In this document: in pieces, positions 8,305-62,277 of the stretch | Numbering within the stretch: position 1 is the stretch's first letter | Layout of the letters: every line of letters starts with the position of its first letter | Origin: an uncultured Candidatus Saccharibacteria bacterium | GTDB lineage: Bacteria; Patescibacteriota; Minisyncoccia; Phycocordibacterales; JACNGX01 | Assembly (NCBI GenBank): GCA_964621395.1 | Contig: CAZULS010000001.1 | Location: 615-64,614, forward strand | Length of the DNA: 64,000 nt | Direction: 5' to 3' | Program-made: the position numbers and the translations under genes | The notes under the pieces: model-generated | Seen by the model: the letters and a program-made list of their open reading frames with translations, nothing else | Databases searched by the model: none | Told to the model about the DNA's origin: nothing

Positions 8305-8383
8305 TGTCATCCCGCACTTGATGCGGGATCTAAAACGTAACGAAACCACTGACCCAAGATTCCGCATCAAGTGCGGAATGACA
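8305..8383. repeat. Two copies of the ~26-nt stem-loop element family (tgtcatcccgcaCTTGAtgcgggatc and gattccgcaTCAAGtgcggaatgaca)
   Basis: 8-bp stem with a CTTGA loop, flanked by TGTCAT...GATC. Other copies at 9272-9296, 9330-9355, 17562-17587, 17621-17646, 20575-20601, 20635-20660, 22627-22653, 25302-25327, 26674-26698, 35373-35398, 43440-43466, 51820-51846, 53007-53032, 54417-54442, 54478-54503. Confidence 0.8.
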
Positions 8384-8425
8384 GAAAAAAGTGATTTAAT
8401 CTGGAAACTTCACCGTTGTGTCGCA

Positions 8426-8475
8426 GCTCCTAAGGTTAAACCTTGGTATTTATACCAAGGTTTAACCTTAGGAGC
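8426..8475. repeat. Perfect 24+24-nt palindrome with an aaggtttaacctt core
   Basis: gctcctaaggttaaaccttggtat-tt-ataccaaggtttaaccttaggagc. Related palindromes at 16278-16333, 27398-27434 and 52028-52079. Confidence 0.8.
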
Positions 8476-8574
8476 TTTCGTACATTCGTATATATTCGTA
8501 CCATTTGTAGATTTGTATCTATTCGTATATTCGGAGTACCCGAGCTCTAAGCTAAAAGCTATCAGCTATAAGCT

Positions 8575-9123
8575 CTAAAGATGGCTTTCGGCAAGAGATG
8601 CCTGAACAGCTTCTTCTAAATGTGAAATTTCTTTTCCAGGAAGTACCCCTGTGGCATACTCCACAGCAACGCTTTCTTCTGCATATCCGAGTGCTGAAAG
8701 AATGGCATACTTTCCTGCAAGAAGCACATGCCTCTTTTCTTCCGCGCTTTCCGAATAAGAGATCAAGTCCATACTCATTGTGGCAACGACAAAAAGAAGT
8801 TCATTCCCCTCTTCACCTTTGATGAGCCTGCGGAGAAATGAGGAAAGTTCGGCGCAGTGCGCACAGCTCTCCAGTGCACACGCTTCCTTTCCTTTCGAAA
8901 AAATACCGGTAAGCGTCCATACATTCTTCCCGCGCACAATATCAATTGTCACATGTCGATATTCCGAAAGATGATATTTCATTTTTGAACCAATAAGACG
9001 AGAACCGCGAGCAACAACGCCGATAAGTCCAAAATCGGGTGTGAGTATATGAAGGAAACGATCGGCCTCTCCCGTGCCAACACTTGCGAGAATGATACCT
9101 TCAGTGTGGTAGATGTGATACAT
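8575..9123 (-). CDS. recO: DNA repair protein RecO (short form)
   Basis: N-terminal OB-fold signature TEGIILASVGTGEADRFLHILTPDFGLIGVVARGSRL. Cys cluster CALESCAHC. Confidence 0.6.
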   Translation of the reverse strand: MYHIYHTEGIILASVGTGEADRFLHILTPDFGLIGVVARGSRLIGSKMKYHLSEYRHVTIDIVRGKNVWTLTGIFSKGKEACALESCAHCAELSSFLRRLIKGEEGNELLFVVATMSMDLISYSESAEEKRHVLLAGKYAILSALGYAEESVAVEYATGVLPGKEISHLEEAVQASLAESHL

Positions 9124-9440
9124 GGTTATCGAGCTTATAGCTTTTAGCTGAGAGCTTATAGGAGAGAGGTTGTTTCGATGCTGTGGAACAGGTTGGAGGA
9201 TTTGTTAGTTTTTAGTTGGTAGTTGTTAGTCGGGCGCGGCTCCGCCACGCCCGTACATATCCCAAACCACAGTCATCCTGAACTTGATTCAGGATCTTCG
9301 CCATGTTATTTCTGAAAATTATTCGAGAAGATTCTGAATCAAGTTCAGAATGACACATAATTCACTTTAATCACAAAAGCGATATTCGTATATATTTGTA
9401 CCATTCGTAGTTTTGTACCTATTCGTAATTCGTAATATTC

Positions 9441-12400
9441 TTACCTCAAAGCGAAGCGCACCGTCTCATTCTCACCAAGTACCGCTTCCGTCGCGTCTTC
9501 AATTTCTTTCTCAAACACGATATTTCTGAGCGATGCTGTTTTCTGAATCATATCTTTGTATTCAGCGATGAGCGACTCAGCGATTGAATCAGCGGAAACA
9601 GCGAGTGTTACCACATCATCCGGCGATAGCCCCTTTGCTTTACGTGCATCTTGAATTGCACGCAAGAGTTCACGCACTTCCCCTTCGCGACGCAGATCAT
9701 CCGTGAGTTCTAAATCGAGACCTGTTCCATTCTCCGTCTTCGATTCGTCCACCACAATTTTCTTCACATTCACTTCATCTTTGATAAGTGCGGCATATCG
9801 CTCGTCGGAGACATACTCGCCCTTCTCGGCAACAAAAAGTGTCGAAAGCGGCTGGCGCACCTTCACCCCTTCGCGCTTGCGCACCAGAAGAGCGGAAGAC
9901 ACCACAGCGCGCACCTTTTCCATCGCGACAATCACCTCCTTTTCTTTCTTCCCCTCTTTCATCTCAATCCAGCTCTCCAAATGCACACTCTCTTTCTTTC
10001 CACCTGTGCGTCCGTACACACGCTCAGAAACAAACGGCGTAAAGGGTGCAAGGAGTATTGCCGTGGCACGAAGCACTTCTCCAAGTACTGCACGCGCCTC
10101 GCGTGCGTCGTTCCCCTCACCTTTCATACGCTCTCTGCTTCGACGCACATACCACGTGGAAAGATCATCCAGAAAGCCAACAAACGGTCTCGTCGCACGG
10201 TCGAGTTCATATGCATCCAAAGCTCGCGTCACATCACGCGACACCTCTCCAAGTCGCGCGAGAATCCATTGATCAAGCACGTTCTTGGGCGCGCCGCCTC
10301 CCGTGGCGCGTCCTTCTTGTCCTTCTTGCCCGGCGGTCCCTCGACCGCTTAGGGCCTCTCCCTTTGGGACGACAAGTTCATAGAAGGCCACCACATTCTC
10401 CAGTCGCGCAATAATTTTTTTATACACCTCATCAACACCCTTCTCGGAAAAGCGAAGTTCTTCACCGCGCACCGCCGGCGAATTCAAGAGATAGAAGCGA
10501 ATGGCATCGGCGCCATAGCGATCCGCCAGATTCATTGGATCAGGATAATTTTTCAGCTTCTTACTCATCTTCTTCCCATCTTCCGCCAAAATCAAACCGT
10601 TCACAATCACGTGGCGGTACGGCGACTCATCAAAAAGCCCGACGCCAAGCATAAGTAAGGTATAAAACCAACCGCGTGTTTGATCCAGTCCTTCAGCAAT
10701 AAAGTCTGCCGGAAAATATTTCTTGAATGATTCTTTCCCTTTCGCCGGATATCCAAATTGTGCAAACGGCATCGCACCGGATTCAAACCAGCAGTCAAAC
10801 ACATCGGGGATACGTGTGTAGGCAGTACCGTCTTTTTCAATTTCCACCTCATCAATATACGGACGATGCACATCAAGCTCGTACTCGGCATTGTGCGGCA
10901 AGGGCACAAAATCCAGCTTTCGATATGTGCCGGTAGATATAAAATCACCTTCTTGCTGTGCATATATCTCAACGATTTCATCTACCGTTCTCCCTTCTGC
11001 ACCTTCAAAGAGCATGCGCGTTGCACCATCATGCGTGACAAAAAGAACGTTTTTCCCCTCATATGTTTCCTCGCATCCATACAACACCTCACTGACTCGA
11101 CGCTTCACATCGACATTACTCTCCCCTTTCGGACGCGGCTTTGTCATCCATTCATGAGCGTTTGTAAAATGCTCATCATCAACACTAACCGGCTTCCCTT
11201 CAAAATCACCAAAGTCATGCTCGCGAATTCCTTCCTCAATAACAATTGCGTCTTCCGGAAATCCGAGACCTTCGGCAACAAGCTTAGCAGTCTCACGCGT
11301 ACGCACCAAGGGCGATGCGATAATCACATCCGGCATGAAGCCTTCTTTCTTCATTCTTTCCACCGCCTCTGTAATTTCTTCTTTTCCTTTCTCTGTTACA
11401 TGATGTTCGTTCTCCGGAAGACCGGAATAAATTCCTGCCACATTACTCTCCGCTTCACCATGACGCATCACTACATAGGTATTGCCGGCAGTCTTTGTAT
11501 ACTTTTTCAATGTTGCCACACTATCAACCACCAATCGCTCACCCCTCTCATTCTCCCACACAGGCAAGGGAGCCCCCCAGAAACGCTGACGAGAAAAATT
11601 CCAGTCCGGCGCACCTTCAAGGAGATTTGCAAAACGCGCCGAGCCAATCTTCTCCGGCACCCAGCCAATCTTTTTATTTTTCTTCAGCGCACGGTCCTTG
11701 AGCTTTTGAATATCAATAAACCACGCCTCTGTCGCATAATTCAGAAGTGGTGTATCACAACGCCAACAATGCGGATACGGGTGTTCATACTTTTCTTTCG
11801 CAAAAAAGGCGTTGTGTTCTTGCAGATACTTGATCACTGCAATATCGGTTGCAAGACGCTCTTTCTCATCATCACTTCTTGGCTTCACCGCCATACCGGA
11901 AAGCACCTCCACCGTATCCTTCACGATGCCCGTATCATCCACATGCTGCACAAACGGCAGATTATGTTTCTTCCCAAGTGTAAGATCGTCTTCACCAAAC
12001 GCCGGCGCAATGTGCACAATACCGGTTCCGTCTTCGGTTGTCACAAAATCACCCGCATAGATTTTCCATCCGTTTTCACGGTGTTCAAGATTCTCGTCGT
12101 CAGCGTAGTATGGGAAGAGTGGCTTATATGCTTTACCCACAAGCTCTCCTCCCTTCATCTCTCCCTCGACATCATATTCCTTTATACCTGCCTTCTCGAA
12201 CACATCTCCCACCCTCTCTTTGGCAACGATATATCGCGCACCACTCGCAAGGACAATCACATACTCAATATCCTCTCCCACAGCCAAAGCCACATTGCCC
12301 GGCAGTGTCCACGGCGTGGTAGTCCACGCGAGAACGTAAGTTCTCGTGTGCCCCGCGGAGCCTTGGCGGAGTAGGGCATCTCCATCTTCCCCACCATCAT

Positions 12401-13142
12401 CAACCAATTCAAACTTCGCAATCACCGACAAGTCCTTCACGTCCTTGTACCCTTGCGACACCTCATTATTCGAAAGCGTTGTCTCACATCGCGGGCAGAT
12501 ATGCATAGAACGATATCCTTTCGTGATGAGTCCCTTTTTATCGAGCTCAGAAAACGCCCACCATACCGATTCGGTGTATGAGGTATCCATCGTTTTATAC
12601 GCATGATCCATGTCGATAAATCGTCCCATGCGCGGCACGGTTCGCTTCCATTCCTCGTCGTAGCGCATCACACTTCCGCGCGCGCGTTCATTGAATTTCC
12701 CGATGCCATATTTCTCAACATCTTTTTTGTTTTCCAATTCGAGCTCTTCTTCAATCAACACCTCCACCGGCAATCCATGACAATCCCATCCCCATTGCCT
12801 GCGGACATGATTTCCCTGCATTGTTTTGTATCGCGGAATTGCATCCTTCATCGTCCCGGCCAAGAGATGACCATAGTGCGGTGTACCGGTCGCAAATGGA
12901 GGTCCATCATAAAACACAAACTCCTTGCCGCCCTCTGTCGCCTCAAGCGTGCGCTCAAAAATACGTTGCTGTCTCCAGAGCGCAAGTGTTTCTTCTTCTT
13001 TACGCGCAACGTCGGAGAGGGTGCGGTTCCCCTCCATGGCCTTGGCGACGGAGGGTGTCTCCTTTGTTGTATCTGCGTGAGAGGACATCTCATCTCCTTT
13101 TCCACAACCGGGAGAACATGTTTTTGGCACAGACTGACTCAT
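9441..13142 (-). CDS. ileS: Isoleucine--tRNA ligase carrying an inserted histidine-phosphatase (PGAM-type) domain
   Basis: HYGH (PHYGHLLAG) and KMSKS (KMSKKL) motifs. The C-terminal tRNA-binding region is present. About 190 aa between PDWNFSRQRFWGAPLPVWE and RIPDVFDCWFESG carry RHGEAESN...RTRETA...EHDFGDFEG...VTHDGATR. Confidence 0.9.
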   Translation of the reverse strand: MSQSVPKTCSPGCGKGDEMSSHADTTKETPSVAKAMEGNRTLSDVARKEEETLALWRQQRIFERTLEATEGGKEFVFYDGPPFATGTPHYGHLLAGTMKDAIPRYKTMQGNHVRRQWGWDCHGLPVEVLIEEELELENKKDVEKYGIGKFNERARGSVMRYDEEWKRTVPRMGRFIDMDHAYKTMDTSYTESVWWAFSELDKKGLITKGYRSMHICPRCETTLSNNEVSQGYKDVKDLSVIAKFELVDDGGEDGDALLRQGSAGHTRTYVLAWTTTPWTLPGNVALAVGEDIEYVIVLASGARYIVAKERVGDVFEKAGIKEYDVEGEMKGGELVGKAYKPLFPYYADDENLEHRENGWKIYAGDFVTTEDGTGIVHIAPAFGEDDLTLGKKHNLPFVQHVDDTGIVKDTVEVLSGMAVKPRSDDEKERLATDIAVIKYLQEHNAFFAKEKYEHPYPHCWRCDTPLLNYATEAWFIDIQKLKDRALKKNKKIGWVPEKIGSARFANLLEGAPDWNFSRQRFWGAPLPVWENERGERLVVDSVATLKKYTKTAGNTYVVMRHGEAESNVAGIYSGLPENEHHVTEKGKEEITEAVERMKKEGFMPDVIIASPLVRTRETAKLVAEGLGFPEDAIVIEEGIREHDFGDFEGKPVSVDDEHFTNAHEWMTKPRPKGESNVDVKRRVSEVLYGCEETYEGKNVLFVTHDGATRMLFEGAEGRTVDEIVEIYAQQEGDFISTGTYRKLDFVPLPHNAEYELDVHRPYIDEVEIEKDGTAYTRIPDVFDCWFESGAMPFAQFGYPAKGKESFKKYFPADFIAEGLDQTRGWFYTLLMLGVGLFDESPYRHVIVNGLILAEDGKKMSKKLKNYPDPMNLADRYGADAIRFYLLNSPAVRGEELRFSEKGVDEVYKKIIARLENVVAFYELVVPKGEALSGRGTAGQEGQEGRATGGGAPKNVLDQWILARLGEVSRDVTRALDAYELDRATRPFVGFLDDLSTWYVRRSRERMKGEGNDAREARAVLGEVLRATAILLAPFTPFVSERVYGRTGGKKESVHLESWIEMKEGKKEKEVIVAMEKVRAVVSSALLVRKREGVKVRQPLSTLFVAEKGEYVSDERYAALIKDEVNVKKIVVDESKTENGTGLDLELTDDLRREGEVRELLRAIQDARKAKGLSPDDVVTLAVSADSIAESLIAEYKDMIQKTASLRNIVFEKEIEDATEAVLGENETVRFALR

Positions 13143-13216: not shown

Positions 13217-13285
13217 TGTCATCCCGCATTCCGTGCCGAGCACTTTTTTCACTTTAGTGAAAATGGTGCTTGGTGATGCGGAATC
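13217..13285. repeat. Compact copy of the composite MITE-like element (tgtcatcccgcat...ttttcactttagtgaaaa...gatgcggaatc)
   Basis: Terminal inverted repeats match the stem-loop family. The internal part is a cactttagtgaaa palindrome shared with the 130-nt copies. Confidence 0.6.
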
Positions 13286-13287
13286 TT

Positions 13288-13341
13288 ACAAAACCAAAGG
13301 TGAGCTTTGGTATGCATACCAAAGCTCACCTTTGGTTTTGT
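13288..13341. repeat. Perfect 25-bp-arm palindrome (acaaaaccaaaggtgagctttggtat-gc-ataccaaagctcacctttggttttgt)
   Basis: Seen directly. Lies in the divergent region between ileS and the plus-strand gene at 13491. A further GC hairpin gcgccccggatgac-ttc-gtcatccggggcgc sits at 13387-13417. Confidence 0.8.
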
Positions 13342-13490
13342 CGTACCCACTCACACCTTCATTCTTAATTCGTAACTCTTTATTCTGCGCCCCGGATGAC
13401 TTCGTCATCCGGGGCGCTTGACTTCCCCTCATCTTTCAGGTAGATATAAAGGCAGTAACACGTTCCCAAAAACCAAAAACAAACACGAAC

Positions 13491-16277: not shown

Positions 16278-16333
16278 GAACCGACCAAGGTTAAACCTTG
16301 GTATAAATACCAAGGTTTAACCTTGGTCGGTTC
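16278..16333. repeat. Perfect 27-bp-arm palindrome of the aaggtttaacctt family
   Basis: gaaccgaccaaggttaaaccttggtat-aa-ataccaaggtttaaccttggtcggttc. Confidence 0.8.
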
Positions 16334-17496: not shown

Positions 17497-17667
17497 AGTT
17501 TCTCTATGATACCACATGGGGCGTGGAGCATGAATCACGGAGCACGACAAAACCCCCATACTGTCATTCCCAACTTGATTGGGAATCTTATTAAATAACC
17601 TCTACAGACAACATACCGAAGATTCCCGCTCAGGGGCGGGAATGACAATGCTGGAGTTTTATACACA

Positions 17668-17705
17668 AAAGCGCCACACCCGAAGGGTGCGGCGCTTTTT
17701 TATCG
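17668..17705. terminator. Rho-independent terminator downstream of rplK (gcgccacaccc-gaa-gggtgcggcgc + T-run)
   Basis: GC stem with a T-run on the minus strand immediately after the rplK stop. Also has a T-run on the plus strand. Confidence 0.6.
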
Positions 17706-18473: not shown

Positions 18474-19019
18474 CTACGCCTTCTTCACCTGAAGAAAGTC
18501 AAGCTCCACCGGTGTCTCACGTCCAAACATTGAAACTAGCACCTTCACCTTGCCACGCTCTGTGTCCACTTCACTCACCTTCCCTTCAAATTCCTTAAAC
18601 GGACCGTCCATGACAATCACCGGATCATCCACTGAGAGATCAATGTCATGCTTCACATCCTTCTTCTCCATGCGTGAGAAGAGCATATCAATTTCCGATT
18701 TTTCAACCGGCACCGGCTGTGTTCCCGCACCGATAAATCCGGTCACGCGCGGAGTGTTGCGCACCACATACCACGATTCATCGTCCACGATCATATCCAC
18801 GAGCACATATCCGGGATAGATATTTTCTTCCACTTCCACGCGCTTTCCGCCCTTCACCTTCACTGTCTTTTCCACCGGTACCACAACATCAAAAATCTTC
18901 TCCTCCATGCCGAGGGATTCGATGCGCTGTTTGAGATTACGCTCCACCGCCTTTTCATAGCCCACATAGGTGTGGACGGCGTACCAATTACGCCCGCGTT
19001 GTGTGTCTTGTTTTGCCAT
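18474..19019 (-). CDS. nusG: Transcription termination/antitermination factor NusG
   Basis: NGN domain (WYAVHTYVGYEKAV) and KOW motif (GPFKEFEGKVSEVD). Gene order is secE-nusG-rplK. Confidence 0.95.
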   Translation of the reverse strand: MAKQDTQRGRNWYAVHTYVGYEKAVERNLKQRIESLGMEEKIFDVVVPVEKTVKVKGGKRVEVEENIYPGYVLVDMIVDDESWYVVRNTPRVTGFIGAGTQPVPVEKSEIDMLFSRMEKKDVKHDIDLSVDDPVIVMDGPFKEFEGKVSEVDTERGKVKVLVSMFGRETPVELDFLQVKKA

Positions 19020-19077
19020 ACTAGAAACGAAAAACTATAAACGATTAACGATAAAAACTCGCGCTACGCGCTCGGGG

Positions 19078-19251
19078 CTAAAGGATATAATTCTCGAATA
19101 CCCAGGAAAAGAGTGCATCAAATGCACCGAGATAATACGCGGCAACAAACGACACCACAATCACAATAATGGTGAACAAAGTGATCTGGCGACGATTCGG
19201 CCAATTCACGTGTCGCATTTCTGCTTGTACTTCTTTGAGATAATTGCTCAT
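19078..19251 (-). CDS. secE: Preprotein translocase subunit SecE (57 aa; below the ORF-track length cutoff)
   Basis: Minus-strand translation reads MSNYLKEVQAEMRHVNWPNRRQITLFTIIVIVVSFVAAYYLGAFDALFSWVFENYIL. Single TM. Located immediately upstream of nusG as in the conserved operon. Confidence 0.8.
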   Translation of the reverse strand: MSNYLKEVQAEMRHVNWPNRRQITLFTIIVIVVSFVAAYYLGAFDALFSWVFENYIL

Positions 19252-19374
19252 ATATATTGTATGAAAAATCCATTTTTAAAAGGCCTTTCGGCCCCTGTTT
19301 CCTCTACTATACTCCCCTCACGGAGAAAGTCAAGTATTCGTCAGAGTTATGCGAAAATATGCTACACTTGTTTT

Positions 19375-20037
19375 ATGAGTGTCCGAATATCGATAGACTC
19401 ATCATCAAGTTTTCTTTCTTCACGCAAGAAAAGTATTTCTGCTTTTATTAATCAGGTGGTTAGTTCAGTGGAAAGAGATATTGATTTTGGTGATGTGGAA
19501 ATAGAAATAGTGGAAACAAAAAATTCCGCTGTTCTGAAGAATATTAATGGTATTGGAGCATATACCCCTTCAGAAGATTTTATTCGACTGACCATTGATG
19601 TTGTCCACCCTGGCATGGACGAGCAGCTCAATACATATCTTCATATTCCACTTATTCATGAACTCCATCATTGTGCTCGAAGAAGAGCAGGTGTTGCCAT
19701 CGATGGAACAACATTCGGAGAGTGTATATTCAGTGAGGGTCTGGCTGACTATTTTGCATATACCAAAACGGGAACATTACCGCCGTGGATAATAGACATT
19801 CACAAACAAGACAAAGAGTTGCTACGCAAAAAAATAAAAGGATTGTATGAAAAGGAATTTACACTTGATGACTATACTGCTTGGTTTATAAAAGGATCAG
19901 AGGAAAAAAATATACCTGCATTTGCAGGCTATACTCTTGGATTTGATATGGTAAAAAATCTTATTGAGAAAAATCCTCAACACACAATACTATCGCTCAC
20001 CCACACACCTTTCTCTATGTCTTTTGTAAAAAATTGA
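19375..20037 (+). CDS. Putative Zn-dependent peptidase-like protein with an HELHH (HExxH) motif
   Basis: Start trimmed to MSVRISIDSS (ATG 19375) because the 5' part of the ORF is antisense to secE. HELHHCARR motif. Family assignment is tentative (DUF2268-like). Confidence 0.45.
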   Translation: MSVRISIDSSSSFLSSRKKSISAFINQVVSSVERDIDFGDVEIEIVETKNSAVLKNINGIGAYTPSEDFIRLTIDVVHPGMDEQLNTYLHIPLIHELHHCARRRAGVAIDGTTFGECIFSEGLADYFAYTKTGTLPPWIIDIHKQDKELLRKKIKGLYEKEFTLDDYTAWFIKGSEEKNIPAFAGYTLGFDMVKNLIEKNPQHTILSLTHTPFSMSFVKN

Positions 20038-20570: not shown

Positions 20571-20833
20571 ATACTGTCATTCCCGCCTCCGAGCGGGAAT
20601 CTTCTCTGTCTTGTTTCCGAGAGCTATTAGGGAAGATCCCGCATCAAGTGCGGGATGACAAAGAGTGTATATGCCATCTGAAAAGCGGTGACCGAAGGTC
20701 GCCGCTTCTTTCTAATTTCTAATTCCGAATTTCTAACTTCTAATCATCGTCATCATCCTTGTCTTTCTTATGTGAATCGCTTTTTTTCGAAGAACCTGCC
20801 TCATCGTAGGTGGCTTGTTCTCGTGAGTGAAGA

Positions 20834-22499: not shown

Positions 22500-22750
22500 A
22501 GCACAAATGTTTCAAAACTTCCTCAAGCGGAACACCACCTTCGCGCACGTTAGTGAAGTCCGCAATCGTCTCCCACTCTTCATCTTTTTCGTCTTCTTTG
22601 TTCATAGGCACTCTATACACCATTCCCGTCATTCCCGCCCCCGAGCGGGAATCTTCATTATATTTTTTCCAAAAGTTATTCAGGAAGATTCCGCATTATA
22701 TCCGACTGCTCGCAGTGTAGGATCAAGTGCAGAATGACAGGAAAAATATA

Positions 22751-25209: not shown

Positions 25210-25335
25210 ATGTTGTCAGAGCAGCGCGGAAGCTTCGCTTCCGCGCTGCCTGAGTCGCCCTTTTATAGCACACTTTATTGGGTTTCGTCCAGTTTTCTCT
25301 GGATTCCGTGTCAAGCACGGAATGACAGTTGGTTT

Positions 25336-26623: not shown

Positions 26624-26674
26624 ATGATGAAGTGTATCAAAAGTGTATCACCTATGTCAAGTAACGAATTCGTG

Positions 26675-27247
26675 TCATTCTGAATGTGATTCAGAATCTT
26701 CGTCATATGTTGGTGAATGTTCGGTAATACCTGCCTCCTCATTCACATATCGTGCGAAGACAAAAAAGAATGAAGACAGCCGATTCAAATACTGCAATGT
26801 TTCAGGCTGTACTTTTACTATTCCCTCTTCCGAAACAGCAACAACTCTTCTTTCAGCTCTTCGCGAAACCGTGCGCGCCACATCTCCGCGAGCGGAAATT
26901 TCATTTCCTCCCGGCACAATAAATGAATGGATGGAAGGAATCTTCTCTGCCATATTCTCTTCCATCTCCTCAAGTGTCGTTACCGACGCGGGAGTGATAT
27001 GCTTATCCGCCCCGGCGACTTCAGCCTGAATCGTAAAAAGATGCGATTGAATGTCGGTGAGAAACTCTTTCGCTAAAACACCTCCCGGCAATTGCATGTT
27101 ACCGACAAGTGCAACAGAAAGCCCGATTATGCTCGTTGCCTCATCGAGCGCGCCAAGCGCCTCAGCAATTGCTGAGCTCTTTGATATGCGCTGATCACAT
27201 CCATACAGCGTCGTCGTTCCATCATCACCTTTGCCTGTAAAATACAT
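26675..27247 (-). CDS. ATP:cob(I)alamin adenosyltransferase, PduO type
   Basis: MYFTGKGDDGTTTLYG N-terminal motif typical of the PduO/MMAB family. The 3' end of the ORF runs through a stem-loop repeat (26674-26698). Confidence 0.8.
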   Translation of the reverse strand: MYFTGKGDDGTTTLYGCDQRISKSSAIAEALGALDEATSIIGLSVALVGNMQLPGGVLAKEFLTDIQSHLFTIQAEVAGADKHITPASVTTLEEMEENMAEKIPSIHSFIVPGGNEISARGDVARTVSRRAERRVVAVSEEGIVKVQPETLQYLNRLSSFFFVFARYVNEEAGITEHSPTYDEDSESHSE

Positions 27248-30531: not shown

Positions 30532-30634
30532 CCGTAAATAAGGAAGCGGGCGGCAACCAACGGTTGCCACCCGCTTCCTTGCTTCTTCCGCCGTAATTCT
30601 TTATTCTTAACTCGTTATTCGTTATTCAATTATT

Positions 30635-32534: not shown

Positions 32535-32536
32535 TT

Positions 32537-35287: not shown

Positions 35288-35340
35288 TGTCATCCCGCAC
35301 TCGACCCTACACCGCAAGCGGTCGGACACAATGCGGGATC
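35288..35340. repeat. Stem-loop family element with a 27-nt internal insertion (tgtcatcccgca-ctcgaccctacaccgcaagcggtcggacacaa-tgcgggatc)
   Basis: Same termini as the 26-nt elements but with an expanded loop. A degenerate copy lies at 35373-35398. Confidence 0.6.
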
Positions 35341-35404
35341 TATAGGTTAATACAACCATTCGCTTCTGCTTGGATTCCGGGTCAAGCCCGGAATAACAAA
35401 ATTA

Positions 35405-36431: not shown

Positions 36432-37271
36432 ATGAGTGGGACAAACGTAAAAAAAGCAAACAACCCTCACAACTTGCCACTGGATAGTGTTTTGTTAGGT
36501 GACAATGTCGAAGTACTTAAAACGCTTCCTGATAATTCTATTGATCTCGTGGTTACAAGTCCGCCATATGATTCTGTACGTGATTACAAAGGGAAGCCAG
36601 AATTTGATCTGCACGCAACAGGTGAACAAATAGCCCGTGTGCTCAAGGAAGGAGGTGTTGCAGTGATGGTGATTCAAGATCAAACTAAGGACTTTGCAAA
36701 AAGTTTGACCTCATTTCGTACTATTGTTGACTGGGTGGACAATATCGGCTTACGGCTGTTTGAAACAGTAATCTATAGAAAACATGGCACTGAAGGCGCG
36801 TGGTGGAAGTATAGATTTCGCGTTGACCATGAATACATGCCAATTTTCCTCAAAGGAGCACGTCCACAATATTTCGACAAGGAACCACTAAAGATTCCAT
36901 CGAAACATGGTGGGAAGGTAATGACAGGGAGTGGAAACCGAAAAACTGATGGTTCAACAACAAAAACAGTCACGCGTCCTATCAATCCAATGAAGTGCAG
37001 GGGCACAGTATGGGATTATCTAATGGCAGGCGACAAAGACCCGCTCAAACGAAAACATCCAGCCGTTTTCCCAGACCAGATTCCCTTTGACATGATCCAA
37101 TGCTTCTGCCCCCCAGACGGCGTGGTACTAGATCCATTTGGAGGTTGCGGATCTACAGCAGTCGCCGCAAAACAGCTCGGCAGGAACTACATCGTAATAG
37201 ATGTAGCAGAAGAATATTGCAAACTGGCAGAACAAAGAATTTCCACTGTCCCAATACCTTTGTTTAGTTAA
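36432..37271 (+). CDS. DNA methyltransferase (beta-class amino-MTase, N4-cytosine/N6-adenine; DPPY motif)
   Basis: DLVVTSPPYDSVRDYKG catalytic motif and C-terminal FxGxG SAM motif (VLDPFGGCGSTAVAA). Convergent with, and overlapping by 8 nt, the candidate endonuclease gene. Confidence 0.85.
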   Translation: MSGTNVKKANNPHNLPLDSVLLGDNVEVLKTLPDNSIDLVVTSPPYDSVRDYKGKPEFDLHATGEQIARVLKEGGVAVMVIQDQTKDFAKSLTSFRTIVDWVDNIGLRLFETVIYRKHGTEGAWWKYRFRVDHEYMPIFLKGARPQYFDKEPLKIPSKHGGKVMTGSGNRKTDGSTTKTVTRPINPMKCRGTVWDYLMAGDKDPLKRKHPAVFPDQIPFDMIQCFCPPDGVVLDPFGGCGSTAVAAKQLGRNYIVIDVAEEYCKLAEQRISTVPIPLFS

Positions 37272-38316: not shown

Positions 38317-38317
38317 A

Positions 38318-38539
38318 CTACCGTGTGAAAAATGAAAGTTCTTTATTATATATCTTTGCAATCTCTTCAAGCTCTACAACATCAACTCTCCGTTCACCTC
38401 GTTCGATCTTTGATATGTAGGATTGAGGTCGTTTGAGTTTCTCTGACACCCCAACCTGAGTAAGTCCAGCTTCAAGACGAGCAGCTTTCAACTGCTCTAC
38501 AACCTTTTTATACTTATTAGAATACAGAGACCTGCTCAT
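38318..38539 (-). CDS. Controller (C) protein, XRE-family HTH, of the R-M system
   Basis: QLKAARLEAGLTQVGVSEKLKRPQSYISKIERGERRVDVVELEEIAKIY, typical of C.PvuII/C.BamHI-type regulators. Located immediately upstream of the endonuclease gene. Confidence 0.75.
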   Translation of the reverse strand: MSRSLYSNKYKKVVEQLKAARLEAGLTQVGVSEKLKRPQSYISKIERGERRVDVVELEEIAKIYNKELSFFTR

Positions 38540-43404: not shown

Positions 43405-43497
43405 GTCAGAGTATACATAAAGTCTTTATTTGTTCTCTAGATCCCGCATCAAGTGCGGGATGACAAGTGTCTGATTTAGAATGACAATTAACTCTTT

Positions 43498-43630
43498 TGT
43501 CATTCCGGACTCCTGCCGAGCTCGACTTTCACTGATTACATTAAAAAATTGTAAACGATAGAAGAAAGAACAAAAAAATGTTTTGCTGTAAACGACATTA
43601 GTGAAAGTGGGGCTCTGGTGATCCGGAATC
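43498..43630. mobile_element. MITE-like ~130-nt composite element (tgtcattccggactcctgccgagctcgactttcactga...agtgaaagtggggctctggtgatccggaatc)
   Basis: ~30-nt terminal inverted repeats built on the stem-loop family, with a ~70-nt AT-rich core. Full-length paralogues at 51880-52011 and 62147-62277 in the opposite orientation. Overlaps the 3' end of ruvX. Confidence 0.65.
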
Positions 43631-44023
43631 TTCGCTATGTCTTTTCTGCTTATCCAAATACCGCTGCAGAATAAGTGCCGCCGCCGATGCATCGTTTGTC
43701 TCCGTCTTTCCTTGCATCTTTCGCGCCTCCTGCGACGTATCATATTCCCACTCAAAATGCACACTGAGGCCGGTTGCTTCTTCAAGCGCTCGAGCATACG
43801 CTTGAGATTCTTCCCAAATCGGATTCTCTTCTCCCGAACGCATGCGTGACTCTCCCATGACAATCACACTCACGCTATGCTCACGAACAATCTCTTTGAT
43901 TCGCTCCACACTCTCCTCCCTCGCAGAAACAACTTCAAGCGGAAATGCCAATGTACCACTCTCATCTGAAAGCGCGACGCCAAGGCGTTTGGTTCCATAA
44001 TCAATGCCAAGATATGTGCTCAT
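43598..44023 (-). CDS. ruvX: Holliday-junction resolvase-like RuvX/YqgF
   Basis: LGIDYGTKRLGVALSDESGTLAFPL and SV...DASAAALILQ motifs. Start trimmed to MSTYLGIDYG. Confidence 0.85.
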   Translation of the reverse strand: MSTYLGIDYGTKRLGVALSDESGTLAFPLEVVSAREESVERIKEIVREHSVSVIVMGESRMRSGEENPIWEESQAYARALEEATGLSVHFEWEYDTSQEARKMQGKTETNDASAAALILQRYLDKQKRHSEDSGSPEPHFH

Positions 44024-44027
44024 ATTT

Positions 44028-45323
44028 TTATACCGACTTCCTATACTGAGTAATCGCATCAGCAATGCTCTTCAGCGTTGTCTCAAACACCGCTTCATCC
44101 GGCTCAAGGAGTGTCATACGAAAACCAAGAATATCGGTGTTAAATCCCGAAAGAGGCACCACGCAAATTCCGGTGGAAGCAAGAAGATAATACACAAAAC
44201 GCTTATCGACAGGCACGTCCTTCACCGCTTTTTCGGTGAGCTCTCGCACGGCATCGTTCTCAATCGGGAGTGTCCCGCCCTCCGGCATATCATCAAAGAC
44301 GACTGAATAATAAAAAGAGCTTTCCGCGCGCGGCGCAATCACACCATGGGTGTTTCCCAGAGCCTTATATGCTTGGTCTGCACGATTCGCATATGTCTTC
44401 ACCCGCGCGCGGACGTGGGCTTCGTATCGCTCATCGGAGAAAAGTTTCGGCAACACCCGTTGCGGCAGTGTCGTTGAACACACCTCAAGCATTTTGGCAT
44501 CATGTAGTGTCTTTACATACCTACAAAACGACTCATCGACATCCGCATTATACACCTCAATCCATCCGGCACGCGCACCCGGCCACGGCACCTCTTTTGA
44601 AAGTCCGCGCATGACAATGGCAGGCACGTCGCTACCGACAAGCTCCGCAAGCGCAACAAATTCGCCGTTATATGCCAAGCGGGCATAGGTCTCATCGGCA
44701 ATAAGAAAAAGGTTATGCCGACGAGCAATAGCCACAATTTCTTCAAGGACCCGGCGCGGATATACCATGCCGGTGGGATTATCAGGATTGATAATGAGAA
44801 TACCGGCAACGGCAGGATTGTAGAGTACTTTGTTTTTAATATCCTCCACATCCGGCAGCCAATTACGATGTGGGTCCAGCGTGTAGGTAATATGCGGGGA
44901 TCCTGCATGCGCCGCCTCAGCCGATGAATGCGTCGGATACGCCGGCGACGGACCAATAATACGCGCTCCCCGGTGGAGATACGTATACACAATAGAAATC
45001 GCATCTCCCAAGCCATTGAAGAAAAGAATATCATCAGGAGACAGATCCACGCCCGACTCTCGTTTTCTCTCCTCGGCAATACACTCACGCGCTTCCTTCA
45101 CCCCCTTGGTCGGTGAATAGCCGAAAGAATCATTTTCCTGCACCTCAGACGCAATAATATCCCGAATCCACTCAGGCACCTTCTCGCCCTTGGCAATCGG
45201 ATCACCAATATTTTCCCAGATAATATCCACGCCCAGTTTTTCAATCTTCTCAGCAAAATCAACAATCCCCCGTATTTCATACGAGAGCTCATCAGCACCT
45301 TCATGAACAATTCGCGTTCGCAT
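44028..45323 (-). CDS. PLP-dependent aminotransferase, class I/II (alanine aminotransferase-like)
   Basis: NIGDP...SKEVPWPGARAGW..., the fold-type I aminotransferase pattern. Start uncertain (45323 or 45401). Confidence 0.8.
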   Translation of the reverse strand: MRTRIVHEGADELSYEIRGIVDFAEKIEKLGVDIIWENIGDPIAKGEKVPEWIRDIIASEVQENDSFGYSPTKGVKEARECIAEERKRESGVDLSPDDILFFNGLGDAISIVYTYLHRGARIIGPSPAYPTHSSAEAAHAGSPHITYTLDPHRNWLPDVEDIKNKVLYNPAVAGILIINPDNPTGMVYPRRVLEEIVAIARRHNLFLIADETYARLAYNGEFVALAELVGSDVPAIVMRGLSKEVPWPGARAGWIEVYNADVDESFCRYVKTLHDAKMLEVCSTTLPQRVLPKLFSDERYEAHVRARVKTYANRADQAYKALGNTHGVIAPRAESSFYYSVVFDDMPEGGTLPIENDAVRELTEKAVKDVPVDKRFVYYLLASTGICVVPLSGFNTDILGFRMTLLEPDEAVFETTLKSIADAITQYRKSV

Positions 45324-45501
45324 GGGAGTCAGTATACCAATGCCACACCTCTTCCGCCAGCCCGCGACCAAAGCCCGACGCGCCATCAAACACTCTCTCA
45401 CTTCTCACATCATATTGCGTATGAGGTGTGGCATTGCAGTAAGATAGGAGATTAGTAGGTTAGTAAAAAGGCACGCTATCGCGCGCCTTCATTCATAATT
45501 C

Positions 45502-45780
45502 TTGCTTCTTTATTCTCTTTGTTGGTATACTATGCACATGGACATCATAGAAATCGTCAACAATCCAATTGCCATGCTTTTGCTTATTGCATGGGTACTG
45601 CCGTGGAAAGGGTACGCGCTGTGGCTTGCATCACGACGCAATCAAACCTGGTGGTTTATCGCATTGCTTGTCTTGAATACCGTAGCAATTCTCCCCATCA
45701 TCTACATCTTTCTCGTCGCCCCACGCTACAGTGAAATCGGCGAGGAAGAAAAAGGTATATCTTCAGACGACAAAAGATAG
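45502..45780 (+). CDS. Small two-TM membrane protein (DUF5652-like: PWKGYALWLASRRNQTWWFIALLVLNT)
   Basis: Signature resembles a family common in Patescibacteria. An alternative start at MHMDIIEIV is possible. Confidence 0.55.
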   Translation: MLLYSLCWYTMHMDIIEIVNNPIAMLLLIAWVLPWKGYALWLASRRNQTWWFIALLVLNTVAILPIIYIFLVAPRYSEIGEEEKGISSDDKR

Positions 45781-50331: not shown

Positions 50332-51123
50332 ATGGAAAAAATAATCCTTCAAAATAGAAAAGGTCAAAACATTGTGGGCATTCTTGAAAAGCCAGAGAAT
50401 GGGACAATTATCGGAACTGCCGTTATTGAGCACGGGTACGGTGGTTTCAAAGAACAAAAACATATTCTCGCAATGAGAGATGCTTTCTTGGAAAACGGAT
50501 TTGTCACATTCAATTTTGATGCCACAAATACGTTCGGAGAAAGTGACGGTGATTTCGAGAAGGCAACACTCGGTCTTCACACCGAAGATTTTGAAGATGT
50601 GACCGAGTGGATACAGGAACAAAACTGGTTCACCGGTCCGCTTGCAATAACGGGGCACTCAATGGGGGGGTATGCATGCGCACGGTACGCGGAAACATTT
50701 CCGGAGAAAGTTTCCTTTTGTCTCCCCATCGCTCCGGTAGTATCGGGACAATTATCATGGGATGCTCTTCGAGAATTCAAACCCGAAGAATTCAACGAGT
50801 GGAGAGAGAAAGGAATGCTAGAGGATGAAAGTAGATCAAAACCAGGTGCCATCAAAAGGAAGCCGTGGAGTCACATGGAGGAACGACTTGGTCATGACCT
50901 GCTCCCTGATGCGCACAAACTCACAATGCCTCTTTTCCTTTTTGTGGGGACAGAAGACACGGCAATACCCCCTAAACATGTCCGGCTCTTATTTGACACC
51001 ATCCCTGAAGGAAACAAAACTCTTGTTGTTGCAGACGGAGCGCCCCATACATACAAAACAGAAAAAGATATCAGCTTTCTAAGAAATGAAATAGATAAGT
51101 GGTTGAAAAAACACGTTGACTGA
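50332..51123 (+). CDS. Alpha/beta-hydrolase fold protein
   Basis: GHSMGG nucleophile elbow, plus downstream Asp/His candidates. Confidence 0.8.
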   Translation: MEKIILQNRKGQNIVGILEKPENGTIIGTAVIEHGYGGFKEQKHILAMRDAFLENGFVTFNFDATNTFGESDGDFEKATLGLHTEDFEDVTEWIQEQNWFTGPLAITGHSMGGYACARYAETFPEKVSFCLPIAPVVSGQLSWDALREFKPEEFNEWREKGMLEDESRSKPGAIKRKPWSHMEERLGHDLLPDAHKLTMPLFLFVGTEDTAIPPKHVRLLFDTIPEGNKTLVVADGAPHTYKTEKDISFLRNEIDKWLKKHVD

Positions 51124-51756: not shown

Positions 51757-51879
51757 GGGAATCATATTCGTCTTTCTCCCAATCGTTCTGCCGCACAGGC
51801 AAAGACAGGGAAATAATTCTGTCATTCCGGCCTCCGAGCCGGAATCTTCGCTGTATTATTTCTTGAGAGCGTTGGGGAA

Positions 51880-52011
51880 GATCCCGCATCACCAGAGCCC
51901 CACTTTCACTAATCTCATTTTTACTCACATACTTTTTGTTCATTCTTCTATCGCCTTTGGTTTTCTTATGTAATCAGTGAAAGTGAAGCTCGGCAGGAGT
52001 GCGGGATGACA
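51880..52011. mobile_element. MITE-like ~130-nt composite element, second full-length copy
   Basis: gatcccgcatcaccagagccccactttcac...cagtgaaagtgaagctcggcaggagtgcgggatgaca. A solo stem-loop lies adjacent at 51820-51846. Confidence 0.65.
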
Positions 52012-52027
52012 AAGAATGGAGTGTGCA

Positions 52028-52079
52028 CCCTGCCAAGGTTAAACCTTTGGATTAATCCAAAGGTTTAACCTTGGCAGGG
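52028..52079. repeat. Perfect 26-bp-arm palindrome of the aaggtttaacctt family
   Basis: ccctgccaaggttaaacctttggatt|aatccaaaggtttaaccttggcaggg. Confidence 0.8.
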
Positions 52080-52167
52080 TTTCAGCTCGTCAAAAGACAA
52101 AAATGATATATAATACAAGAACCAGTCTCACTGAAAACACAGCGCTATAAGTATTATTAAAAAGCTG

Positions 52168-52888: not shown

Positions 52889-53114
52889 TACATTACGAAT
52901 TACGAATATAATACGAATCTACGAATGGGTTATATATCTGCTTCGGGCTTACGATTTTCCCATATCACAATATATTTTCAAGTAGTATCTCTTTGAGACA
53001 TATTCTGAGAGAAACAAAACAACGAAGATTCCGGATCAAGTCCGGAATGACAAAATATTTGCGTATTCGTATATTCGCGGTATTCGTAATTCGTAATTGT
53101 GGTAAGATAGCATC

Positions 53115-54383: not shown

Positions 54384-54566
54384 ACATAAAAAGTTATTCC
54401 AGACCACGCCGTTTAAGATTCCGGATCAGGTCCGGAATGACAGGAAGAGAGCAAGTGGTCACTCTACACTAAAGACATGTCATTCTGAACTTGATTCAGA
54501 ATCTTCCCAAACAACCCTCGCAGACAACAGCGCCACTTTTCTCTACTCATAACTCTCAACTCGTCC

Positions 54567-57829: not shown

Positions 57830-57841
57830 GCGCTTATTATA

Positions 57842-58591: not shown

Positions 58592-58657
58592 ACAAAAGTT
58601 GAGAGCGAAGAGTTAAGAGAAAAGAGAATACAGCTCCGTCTCTCAACTCTCAACTCT

Positions 58658-61036: not shown

Positions 61037-61118
61037 ACATCATAAGCACATGCCGACAAATCACAAAAAACAAGTACCAAATATCAAATAATATCAAAAT
61101 CTCAATATCGAAACGGCT

Positions 61119-61493
61119 TTATGTTGATTTCTCAACAATTCTCGAGAAAATCTTTTTCAATTCCACCGCCTCCTCAGTCAACCACCTCCTCTTCTTTTCA
61201 ATTTCTTCAGAATGAGCGTTCAGAAGTCGTAACCACAGCACACTTTCTTTTGCTTCCTTGCGACATATTTTCATTCGCATGACAAAATCTTTTTTACTGA
61301 GAGATTCATTCGCTTCAATATAATTTGCGGCAACAGACCCTGAAGATCGTATGAGCTGTTTACCATCTTCAATGTGTGCACTTGTCTTCTGTAGACTTGC
61401 AACAAATACTCTTACTTCTTTCGCGAAAAGAAAAGTTCGTTCTTCCAAATCATATGGTTTTTCGTCATTATTCACTTCTCTAGTGTACCACAT
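61119..61493 (-). CDS. Four-helix-bundle protein (23S rRNA IVS-type family)
   Basis: Pattern YDLEERTFLFAKEVRVFV...SSGSVAANYIEANESLSKKDFVMRMKICRKEAKESVLWLRL. Confidence 0.7.
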   Translation of the reverse strand: MWYTREVNNDEKPYDLEERTFLFAKEVRVFVASLQKTSAHIEDGKQLIRSSGSVAANYIEANESLSKKDFVMRMKICRKEAKESVLWLRLLNAHSEEIEKKRRWLTEEAVELKKIFSRIVEKST

Positions 61494-61527
61494 TTAAATG
61501 GGAGTATTGGAATTTCGTTATTGTGAT

Positions 61528-61983
61528 TTATTTGTGATTTGGTGCTTGTGATTTGAGGTTTATTTTCCTTGTGGTCTCGTTAATGTGCTCAAGCGTGAGC
61601 TGTATCGTATTTTTAGGGATGATAGATTCAATCCGTTCAGGCCATTCGATGACTATGAAATTTTTGGGATCGGTTATGAGATTCTCCCAGCCAAGTGTTT
61701 CCATATCTTTACTCCCTTCAAGGCGATAGGCATCAATATGAATGAGTGTGGTGAATGTTTCATCCGCGGTATCATACGAACGCATGATACCGAATGTCGG
61801 ACTTGTTACCCTCCCTTTCACACCCAGCTCTTCGGCGAGCGCTTGGGTGAATGTGGTTTTCCCCGCACCGAGGTCTCCTGAGAGAGTGAGGATCGACGCT
61901 TCACGTGCGTCGGAGGGCAGCGCGGCAAGGGTTTCGCGCACGACATTCTTCATTTCTTTGGTGTTTTGAATCGTGTATTCCAT
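61528..61983 (-). CDS. tsaE: tRNA threonylcarbamoyladenosine biosynthesis protein TsaE
   Basis: Walker A LSGDLGAGKTTFTQALAEELGV. HIDAYRLE motif. Confidence 0.8.
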   Translation of the reverse strand: MEYTIQNTKEMKNVVRETLAALPSDAREASILTLSGDLGAGKTTFTQALAEELGVKGRVTSPTFGIMRSYDTADETFTTLIHIDAYRLEGSKDMETLGWENLITDPKNFIVIEWPERIESIIPKNTIQLTLEHINETTRKINLKSQAPNHK

Positions 61984-62146
61984 ATGAGTAAGAATAAAGA
62001 ATTACGAATAATGAATCAAGGCACGGAAGTGGTGCGGGACCGGCCATGGAATAAAGAATTATGAATTATGAATCAAGGCACAGCAAAAAACGGCGTCATG
62101 CGCCGCATCACTTCCACGCAAGACAAAAGCGGCACATGAATCTCGA

Positions 62147-62277
62147 GATCCCGCATCACCAGAGCCTCACTTTCACCAATATCATTTGCAGTAAAACATC
62201 TTTTACCCCCCCTCCTACCGTCTACAGTTTCTCAGGTGTTCAGTGAAAGTGAAGCTCGGCAAGAGTGCGGGATGACA
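62147..62277. mobile_element. MITE-like ~130-nt composite element, third full-length copy
   Basis: gatcccgcatcaccagagcctcactttcaccaata...cagtgaaagtgaagctcggcaagagtgcgggatgaca. Followed by terminator hairpin 62307-62335. Confidence 0.65.

Follow-up and report, generated by a model that had tools for sequence, protein, structure and literature searches.

The window analysed here, a 64-kb stretch of contig CAZULS010000001.1, contains 23 copies of a hairpin-forming repeat, 17 of them short and six with long loops, which total 994 nt or ca. 8 % of its non-coding DNA. These hairpins are probably repetitive extragenic palindromic (REP) elements of the CGTC/TGTC-tagged superfamily, best fitting the CGTC-2 group (8-bp stem, 5-nt loop), and are located on a Parcubacteria chromosome. 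A preliminary description of this DNA had likened them to REPs, and they show essentially all the features stated for CGTC-tagged REPs (PMC3733652), a class defined by Di Nocera, De Gregorio and Rocco (2013, BMC Genomics 14:522; PMC3733652). The host is, on sequence grounds, a Parcubacteria (Patescibacteria/candidate phyla radiation, CPR) bacterium; its PolA is 86 % identical to that of the metagenome-assembled genome 'Parcubacteria group bacterium' JACNGX010000046.1 (L122) and ca. 50 % identical to those of other Paceibacterota/Patescibacteria.

The short unit is an asymmetric DNA palindrome of 25–26 nt, (T/C)GTC-ATYCNNNN-loop-NNNNGRAT-C(TT). A direct reading of positions 8200–9500 shows, for instance, that the copy at 8305–8330 reads TGTC-ATCCCGCA-CTTGA-TGCGGGAT-C and has an inverted neighbour at 8358–8383. 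The unit had originally been drawn as symmetric; its hairpin and CTTGA loop are real, but the closing 'GRATGACA' is a view of the reverse strand, and the strictly symmetric pattern TGTCAT-N20-ATGACA has no match in the window, which indicates that the repeat unit is asymmetric. A search for 8-bp arms that start with ATYC and enclose a loop of 3–9 nt yielded 17 units, all with perfect stems, with GTC in front (GTT once) and C behind. The 13 copies that have 5-nt loops served to build a covariance model; used on the whole window with filters off, it recovered exactly the 17 short copies (22–52 bits, the next match scoring 12 bits). The pattern GTCATYC-N13-GRATC has 12 exact matches vs. 0.09 ± 0.29 expected from 100 dinucleotide-preserving shuffles. 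All nine of the coordinates quoted in the preliminary description correspond to genuine copies, and its estimate of at least 20 agrees with the 23 that we counted. No copies were found in the stretches 1–8300, 26.7–35.2 kb, 35.4–43.4 kb, 43.7–51.8 kb and 54.6–62.1 kb.

The tag is TGTC in 20 of the 23 copies and CGTC, AGTC and TGTT in one each (YGTC in 21/23), and all 23 have 8-bp arms starting with AT, with one mismatch each in two long-loop copies. Thirteen copies have 5-nt loops (CTTGA in ten, CCTGA and TGTGA in one each, and CTTGA with a degenerate tag in one) and four have 6-nt loops of CYCYGA type (CCCTGA, CTCCGA or CCCCGA), while the arms of the other six are 32–112 nt apart; the alternative loops noted earlier thus exist, but are of 6 nt and not 7. 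The tail is conserved and mostly CTT(C), with CCA in two copies (25326, 35397), and the stability of the hairpins ranges from -5.6 to -9 kcal/mol as DNA.

Base pairing in the stem is conserved in spite of sequence change. Pair counts were restricted to the 13 ungapped copies with 5-nt loops, because a MAFFT alignment of all 17 placed the gap of the 6-nt loops inside the stem. Every one of the 104 stem cells forms a Watson-Crick pair, with no G-U pair or one-sided change, and five of the eight pairs (19 cells; stem positions 3 and 5–8) are changed on both sides, so the compensatory variation described earlier is borne out: the observed covariation score was reached by none of 500 shuffles, and sliding the 3′ partners by 1–3 columns reduced pairing to 17–49 %. 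The stem does not vary over its whole 8 bp, as had been proposed, but at positions 3 and 5–8, with pairs 1, 2 and 4 (A-T, T-A, C-G) invariant; its base (A-T, T-A, Y-R, C-G) is thus fixed, and the top 4 bp vary solely as Watson-Crick pairs, giving 11 different stem sequences in the window. In a pool of 402 non-redundant copies from all loci fetched, covering many genomes, the stem is perfect in 86 %; the 43 copies with a single mismatch comprise 20 of G.T type, 15 of A.C type and 8 others, with no strand bias of the wobble mismatches (G.T vs. A.C). The lack of G-U pairs and of strand bias indicates that it is the DNA palindrome, as opposed to a single RNA strand, on which the constraint or the generating process acts. 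The earlier suggestion of selection on structure holds in that pairing is kept, but at the level of a DNA palindrome that is either constrained or generated as such.

Most copies occur in pairs. With head and tail used as in the REP literature (PMC3733652), so that head-to-head (HH) means tags outside, the window has seven HH dimers, two tail-to-tail (TT) arrangements, no tandem (head-to-tail, HT) pair and five singletons (Table 1), and all nine dimers are heterodimers. Inverted pairs had been reported at distances of 30–60 nt; the pairs were confirmed, but the gap from hairpin to hairpin is 26–35 nt, and tags are 77–84 nt apart, or further where a loop insert is present in the partner. A polar spacer of 35 nt, CTTCGyTrTrTTrTTTCy...TTATTnrGGAAG, is common to five HH dimers; the left unit has a 6-nt loop (CYCYGA) in four of the five, and the right unit is of CTTGA type or carries a loop insert. 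Singletons such as 53027–53051 keep the left half of this spacer. The conserved polar spacer, together with the half-spacer singletons, suggests that the ca. 84-bp dimer is the unit that is copied. A fold as one long hairpin is possible for two dimers, among them 9272–9354, which can form a REPIN-like hairpin of -22 kcal/mol as DNA; others fold as two hairpins.

The six long-loop copies have a normal tag and 8-bp arms, and their inserts are themselves hairpins. In type B, a 27-nt module directly follows the CTTGA loop; it includes the 27-nt loop insertion formerly placed at 35288–35340, which proved to be a type-B module in the copy 35289–35340 (+), and its small inner hairpin covaries between this copy and 22687–22738 (-). 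Type C contains an inner hairpin of 43–112 nt, CCGAGC..CACTTTCAC...GTGAAAGTG..GCTCTGG. Long-loop versions also occur in many other genomes, with 35 cases, some of which consist of half a unit and then a complete one, vs. none in a reversed-arm control. In metagenome contig L165 (300–450, -) a type-C core hairpin, CCCAGCCCCACTTTCAC...GTGAAAGTGGGGCTGGG, lies after a REP and the dimer spacer with no REP arms around it, and the module may exist independently of the REP loop.

The elements differ among close relatives. L122 is syntenic with the window at ca. 80 % nucleotide identity, and two or three metagenome contigs found through the REP pattern, L221, L235 and probably L165, are at a similar distance; the repeats thus occur in three or four relatives of about this identity. 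As had been recommended, the covariance model was also run on relatives: besides the 17 short copies of the window it found two in L122, three in L221 and three in L235. Eight Parcubacteria loci of more remote relationship, 149 kb in all, had no copy, indicating a family that is lineage-restricted within the phylum. Singleton 53027–53051 is identical in L122, which has a single REP at the site of the 54.4-kb TT dimer and lacks, at the syntenic site, the dimer of 51.8–52.1 kb (51821–52010) and its adjoining palindrome. In L235 the 20.6-kb dimer is present, decayed and in opposite orientation, and the 22.6-kb dimer lacks the 27-nt module, with a clean indel exactly at the junction of loop and 3′ arm. 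In L221 the place of the 17.6-kb dimer is taken by an HH dimer whose stems differ, whose tails are CCA and whose spacer is 22 nt long, and there is a REP near 16.2 kb, at a position without one in the window. These sequence comparisons show that the elements turn over on a time-scale of ca. 20 % sequence divergence. Exact-protein look-ups for strain polymorphism gave either no record or nothing but short Logan contigs that were apparently identical. Two short-read contigs of the same organism end within repeats, L001 within the type-C REP 62147–62276 and L144 within another palindrome, as expected if there are further copies elsewhere in the genome. Two genes also vary in these loci: the alpha/beta-hydrolase gene 50332–51123 (+) has no counterpart in syntenic L122, and ca. 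730 nt of the DUF2268 protease-like gene 18970–20037 (+) are missing in L235.

The repeat is common outside this lineage. The pattern GTCATYC-N4-CTTGA-N4-GRATC occurs in at least 120 contig stretches of a viral collection; among the matches listed, the N4 arms are perfectly complementary in 128 of 143, GC content ranges from 34 % to 72 %, the tail is mostly CA, and GTC is preceded by C in 92 copies, by T in 32 and by A in 3. The TGTC...CTTC subtype was found in at least 120 further metagenome stretches, with a median GC of 42 % among the matches listed, and is common in low-GC metagenome contigs. The same hairpin occurs across hundreds of unrelated viral and metagenomic contigs of 23–72 % GC, and the copies are both non-identical and abundant beyond the window.

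We then looked for a gene that could mobilise the repeats. The proposed RAYT (REP-associated tyrosine transposase) partner did not materialise: RAYTs pair with GTAG-tagged REPs, and neither the ca. 70 open reading frames (ORFs) of the window nor the genes recurring near copies elsewhere include one, no RAYT (Y1 HUH) gene being found in the 64-kb window plus ca. 32 kb of close relatives. More broadly, Pfam and NCBIfam searches of the ca. 70 window ORFs found no transposase, integrase, HUH or Y1 domain, the products being housekeeping proteins or having no assigned family. ORFs near copies were also clustered, out to 1.5 kb in 120 viral loci and out to 600 nt in 120 metagenome loci. The families recurring in viral loci (portal, prohead protease, capsid, tail tube, terminase) were rejected as cognates, as they reflect the gene transfer agent (GTA)/prophage head-tail clusters sampled, and so was the one family that recurred in the metagenome loci, that of type IV pilin-like genes, where ORFs continue into REPs lying upstream. 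A search for ORFs bracketed by inverted REPs ('REPtron' test) gave 59 candidates, with a shared family only in viral loci of prophage/GTA clusters.

In high-GC GTA/prophage-like head-tail clusters, from probably alphaproteobacterial hosts, a CGTC REP (GTCATCCCGGACTTGATCCGGGATC) or HH dimer occupies a recurrent position (L003, 3379–3403, between the prohead protease and major capsid genes, and about 27–37 other viral loci, such as L004, L010, L015 and L021). TGTC-type REPs lie immediately upstream of type IV pilin-like genes in L153, L161, L166, L180, L186, L196, L214 and L231, so that naive ORF calls extend into REP peptides, e.g. VILNLIQNL or CHSVLDTESS. In the viral contig L057 (57 % GC), at least six same-orientation copies of GTCATTCCGGGCTTGACCCGGAATC occur in 2.6 kb (2900–6420), several preceded by a conserved ca. 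57-nt module starting with a half REP; this tandem-type arrangement is rare for the CGTC-tagged class.

How the repeats would spread can be proposed by analogy with GTAG REPs/REPINs and IS200/IS605. The spreading unit would be the HH dimer, REPIN-like, of which singletons with half a spacer would be remnants, and it would move through a single-stranded DNA (ssDNA) hairpin intermediate, with an enzyme acting in trans that recognises tag, stem base and loop. Once inserted, the elements would be largely neutral, co-transcribed passengers that add hairpins to intergenic RNA and occasionally supply the 3′ ends of genes, and their extruded loop might be a preferred entry for small palindromic modules, leading to nested hairpins. 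In a stronger form of this idea, the CGTC-class REP loop would be a specific docking site for such modules (the 27-nt type B, the 43–112-nt type C and others in unrelated genomes), with an active machinery that targets ssDNA hairpin loops and builds nested elements; this machinery, which would also be what mobilises CGTC REPs, could be a housekeeping enzyme of replication or repair instead of a dedicated transposase, considering the very small CPR genome and that no transposase is in view. We regard this stronger form as doubtful.

Several points weigh against the assignment of the window hairpins to mobile CGTC-class REPs. No mobilising enzyme was found in the window, in the relatives or near copies in ca. 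1.9 Mb of other loci, nor any target-site duplication or clean empty/filled-site pair for a whole REP or dimer, and the differences in presence at 80 % identity could be deletions instead of insertions. Singleton 53027–53051 is 100 % conserved in an intergenic region that is 93 % identical, with flanking genes at 80 %, which would also fit a host function, and perfect Watson-Crick covariation could stem from arm-to-arm templated repair and not from selection for recognition. Additionally, ten copies have loops outside the 4–5 nt of the class, and tails are mostly CTT(C) and not CCA. Relative L221 has CCA tails.

The position of the repeats could also suit a role in RNA. The window is an ordinary chromosome segment, 81 % coding, with genes for IleRS, ArgRS, PolA, L11, NusG, L19, RuvA, RuvX, a RecO-like protein, a Pif1-type helicase, a Mur ligase, TsaE, eight tRNAs and others. 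In agreement with the intergenic and gene-end location first described, its 14 REP sites are all intergenic or at extreme gene ends (the C-terminal codons of the PduO-type adenosyltransferase and the 3′ overlap with RuvX): 12 lie between co-directional genes, two in divergent and none in convergent regions, several of them 3–15 nt from a stop codon. The hairpins could therefore be 3′-end stabilisers, attenuators, terminators or processing sites selected for transcript folding between co-directional genes; they are stable, the singleton 53027–53051 is inside a highly conserved intergenic region, and many REPs are argued to be transcribed (PMC3733652). We consider this improbable because single copies occur in both orientations relative to transcription (two sense, two antisense), two sites are in divergent promoter regions, and neither G-U pairs nor a wobble strand bias accompany the covariation. 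Moreover, Rfam covariance models at gathering threshold found, in the whole window, the eight tRNAs and no other family. Terminator function was rejected, since tails read CTTC.., CTAA.. or CCAG.., with no T tract after the stem, and only two units passed a lax terminator scan. Canonical GC-rich, T-tract terminators do adjoin some dimers (e.g. 20683–20707), and there is a GC-rich hairpin between A and T runs at ca. 17660–17700; the transcript order at such sites is gene, terminator, REP dimer and next gene, with the dimer directly upstream of the latter, indicating that the REPs are not the terminators. A general role of the outward ATGACA as a -35 box was likewise rejected, with a -10-like hexamer at 17–18 nt in only four of the 23 copies.

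An equally improbable explanation is that a DNA-acting protein of the host or of a mobile element recognises or targets the hairpins, their copy number reflecting recruitment and not self-propagation. Filamentous prophages and IS110-type recombinases use Neisseria dRS3 as an attachment site, and gyrase, IHF and Pol I bind the BIMEs of E. coli. These precedents would carry over to the window by analogy. The dRS3 repeats belong to the same superfamily (PMC3733652). Tag, stem base and loop are conserved across genomes from 23 % to 72 % GC, suggesting a conserved protein-DNA interface, and the hairpin does serve as a target of insertion, since discrete modules have gone precisely into the loop or next to it. 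However, no recombinase, integrase or prophage adjoins a copy in the window. The palindromes of 27–112 nt inserted in the loops are non-coding and are neither phages nor IS elements, and the variation of the upper stem speaks against a simple duplex operator. Lastly, chance palindromes, or a few recent local duplications that form no family, can practically be dismissed, with only the small sample (64 kb) in their favour, vs. 12 matches for 0.09 expected, 11 different stems and the presence of the element, with complementary arms, in relatives and in hundreds of unrelated contigs.

A second repeat family shares the intergenic mosaics that bear the REPs; it consists of near-50-nt perfect palindromes on AAGGTTAAACCTTGG/CCAAGGTTTAACCTT, with a variant on AACCAAAGGTGAGCTTTGG (Table 1); its 52-kb copy is absent from L122, and the Logan contig L144 ends within the 16.3-kb copy. 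Arrays of the AT-rich motifs ATTCGTAATTCTTTATTC/ATTCGTATATATTCGTACC are mostly found just upstream of genes or tRNAs, and the intergenic region between RuvA and the Mur ligase that contains them is 93 % identical to L122, with flanking genes at ca. 80 %; their sequence context suggests that they might be promoter or regulator sites. The RecO-like gene 8575–9123 (-) is flanked by AGCT-rich inverted repeats (AGCTAAAAGCTATNAGCT...) at 8540–8575 and 9127–9160, and bracketed by two REP HH dimers; a similar stretch, AGCTTATAGCT, occurs in L235. Among the other genes, the IleRS ORF 9441–13142 (-; 1233 aa) has a domain of the histidine-phosphatase superfamily (His_Phos_1, residues 557–723, E = 1e-31) within the class I synthetase core, which is an unusual domain insertion, and an N6/N4 DNA methylase gene, 36432–37271 (+), lies beside an ORF of 368 aa without family match, 37264–38370 (-), with which it possibly forms a restriction-modification pair.

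Table 1. Repeat copies, dimers and neighbouring repeat families of the window.
Position	Strand	Feature	Details
8306..8330	+	REP unit	Stem ATCCCGCA, loop CTTGA; HH partner of 8358-8382
8358..8382	-	REP unit	Stem ATTCCGCA, loop CTTGA
8306..8382		HH dimer	
9272..9296	+	REP unit	Tag AGTC, stem ATCCTGAA, loop CTTGA; left unit, conserved-spacer HH dimer
9330..9354	-	REP unit	Stem ATTCTGAA, loop CTTGA
9272..9354		HH dimer	Spacer CTTCGCCATGTTATTTCTGAAAATTATTCGAGAAG, conserved-spacer family
13218..13285	+	Long-loop REP	68 nt, type C short version; arms ATCCCGCA/TGCGGAAT with one C.A mismatch, enclosing short type-C inner hairpin CCGAGCAC..GTGCTTGG; between IleRS and ORF 13491, which diverge
17563..17587	+	REP unit	Stem ATTCCCAA, loop CTTGA; right unit of HH dimer
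17621..17646	-	REP unit	Stem ATTCCCGC, 6-nt loop CCCTGA; left unit, conserved-spacer HH dimer
17563..17646		HH dimer	Conserved-spacer family, polarity on - strand; two separate hairpins
20576..20601	+	REP unit	Stem ATTCCCGC, loop CTCCGA; left unit, conserved-spacer HH dimer
20635..20659	-	REP unit	Stem ATCCCGCA, loop CTTGA; right unit of HH dimer
20576..20659		HH dimer	Conserved-spacer family; just downstream of canonical terminator 20683-20707 (- strand)
22628..22653	+	REP unit	Tag CGTC, stem ATTCCCGC, loop CCCCGA; left unit of HH dimer
22687..22738	-	Long-loop REP	27-nt type-B module between loop CTTGA and 3′ arm
22628..22738		HH dimer	Conserved-spacer family; 27-nt module in right unit
25302..25326	-	Single REP	Stem ATTCCGTG, tail CCA; 9 nt past BacA stop codon, ahead of tRNA-His
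26674..26698	+	Single REP	Stem ATTCTGAA, loop TGTGA; provides final ca. 8 codons and stop of PduO-type adenosyltransferase ORF 26675-27247 (-)
35289..35340	+	Long-loop REP	27-nt type-B module; HH partner of 35373-35397
35373..35397	-	REP unit	Degenerate tag TGTT, stem ATTCCGGG, tail CCA
35289..35397		HH dimer	
43440..43464	-	REP unit	Stem ATCCCGCA; TT arrangement with 43499-43630; truncated REP copy GTCATTCTAAATC nearby at 43473-43485 (-)
43499..43630	+	Long-loop REP	132 nt, type C; arms ATTCCGGA, inner hairpin CCGAGCTCGACTTTCAC..GTGAAAGTGGGGCTCTGG; 3′ part overlaps 3′ end of RuvX ORF 43598-44065 (-)
43440..43630		TT arrangement	
51821..51846	+	REP unit	Stem ATTCCGGC, loop CTCCGA; left unit, conserved-spacer HH dimer
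51880..52010	-	Long-loop REP	131 nt, type C; right unit of HH dimer
51821..52010		HH dimer	Conserved-spacer family; type-C insert in right unit
53027..53051	-	Single REP	Stem ATTCCGGA, left-spacer tail CTTCGTTGTTTTGTTTCT
54417..54441	-	REP unit	Stem ATTCCGGA, loop CCTGA; TT dimer with 54479-54503
54479..54503	+	REP unit	Stem ATTCTGAA, loop CTTGA
54417..54503		TT arrangement	
62147..62276	-	Long-loop REP	130 nt, type C
~8426-8475, ~16278-16333, ~52025-52080; variant 13286-13343		Second palindrome family	
8484-8530, 9384-9440, 13368-13385, 30589-30627, 45491-45515, 53060-53110, 62009, 62066-62090		AT-rich arrays	

CGTC-tagged REPs are widespread, comprising Neisseria dRS3, Rickettsia RPEs and alphaproteobacterial repeats, and no enzyme is known to spread them. 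The window has 23 copies in 64 kb, with visible turnover among related Parcubacteria, organisms whose genomes are of roughly 1 Mb and have very few mobile-element genes; this combination of a small genome and few mobile-element genes leaves a short list of candidate mobilising proteins. The main value of the repeats is thus as a small-genome system in which to seek the CGTC REP mobiliser, being otherwise an ordinary instance of a described class, which they extend to a sixth phylum. They also have practical consequences, because such repeats break short-read CPR assemblies, create spurious ORFs and alter annotated gene ends.

The CGTC class has been described in detail (PMC3733652): its tag is CGTC, 'changed to TGTC' in many repeats, TGTC or CCTC variants being accepted; stems are of 8–9 bp, with A-T and T-A at positions 1 and 2; loops are of 4–5 nt and a few major types, with exceptions in few species (4 nt in CGTC-1, and 5 nt with an 8-bp stem in CGTC-2); and tails are of 3 nt, mostly CCA. 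HH dimers predominate, with conserved spacers, TT being rare and HT negligible, and heterodimers occur in CGTC-2 and CGTC-3; the repeats lie between unidirectional or convergent ORFs, near 3′ ends, and some are intragenic, and no associated or dedicated transposase is reported for the class (PMC3733652). Like CGTC-tagged REPs, and CGTC-2 in particular, the window repeats have an unpaired YGTC tag, an AT-led 8-bp stem, a loop that is of 5 nt in 13 of the 23 copies and a short unpaired tail, mostly CTT(C); they also form HH heterodimers 20–100 bp apart with conserved spacers, are intergenic, occasionally overlap ORF ends and have no linked transposase. The CTTGA loop is also implied by REP peptides in the supplement of that study, e.g. 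VIPGLDPGI (our own back-translation; PMC3733652). Unlike the published class, recorded from Proteobacteria, Chlorobi, Bacteroidetes, Spirochaetes and Thermotogae (PMC3733652), the host belongs to Patescibacteria/Parcubacteria; a 6-nt-loop subtype (CYCYGA) is systematically the left dimer unit, and six of the 23 copies have structured loop inserts of 32–112 nt.

Within the superfamily, Neisseria dRS3 and Rickettsia RPE-6 belong to CGTC-1 and Rickettsia RPE-4 to CGTC-4 (PMC3733652). The dRS3 core ATTCCC-N8-GGGAAT is present in four window copies (ATTCCCGC/ATTCCCAA stems), with GTC 5′ of the core, and the alternation of hairpins with short spacer modules in intergenic DNA resembles the Neisseria NIME mosaics; unlike the window repeats, however, CGTC-1 has 4-nt loops and Neisseria copies are mostly in large clusters, and a role as prophage or IS target is not evidenced in the window. 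As with RPE-4 and RPE-6, repeats can join coding sequence (the ends of the PduO-type and RuvX genes), but the window has no in-frame insertions inside genes and its host is not an intracellular proteobacterium.

The REPINs, as well as the GTAG-tagged REPs that go with RAYT transposases, were reportedly described by Bertels and Rainey in 2011 and by Nunvar et al. in 2010, and GTAG REPs are mobilised by a RAYT-type HUH Y1 transposase. The window repeats share with REPINs short intergenic hairpins, an unpaired 4-nt tag and inverted doublets that have a conserved spacer and are likely to be what replicates, two of them foldable as one long hairpin; in contrast, their tag is YGTC (21/23) and not GT[AG]G, no RAYT was found in the window and ca. 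32 kb of close relatives, nor is one known for the class, and most dimers are heterodimers that fold as two hairpins. The ca. 84-bp HH dimer, dispersed, non-coding and with terminal inverted repeats, is also similar to miniature inverted-repeat transposable elements (MITEs), such as Correia/NEMIS, RUP or Nezha, although here each 'terminal inverted repeat' is a complete hairpin that is also found alone; no direct repeat flanking the HH dimers and no parent IS were found, and the empty-site comparisons are too diverged for junctions. The literature searched, including an HUH phylogenomics study and the 2025 RepRanger survey, contained no REPs in Patescibacteria and no CGTC-specific transposase after 2013, and REPs in Parcubacteria (CPR) have apparently not been reported before. 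The repeat superfamily is therefore already described, and what is new in the window is the host phylum, the CTT tail, the 6-nt-loop subtype and the large nested loop inserts.

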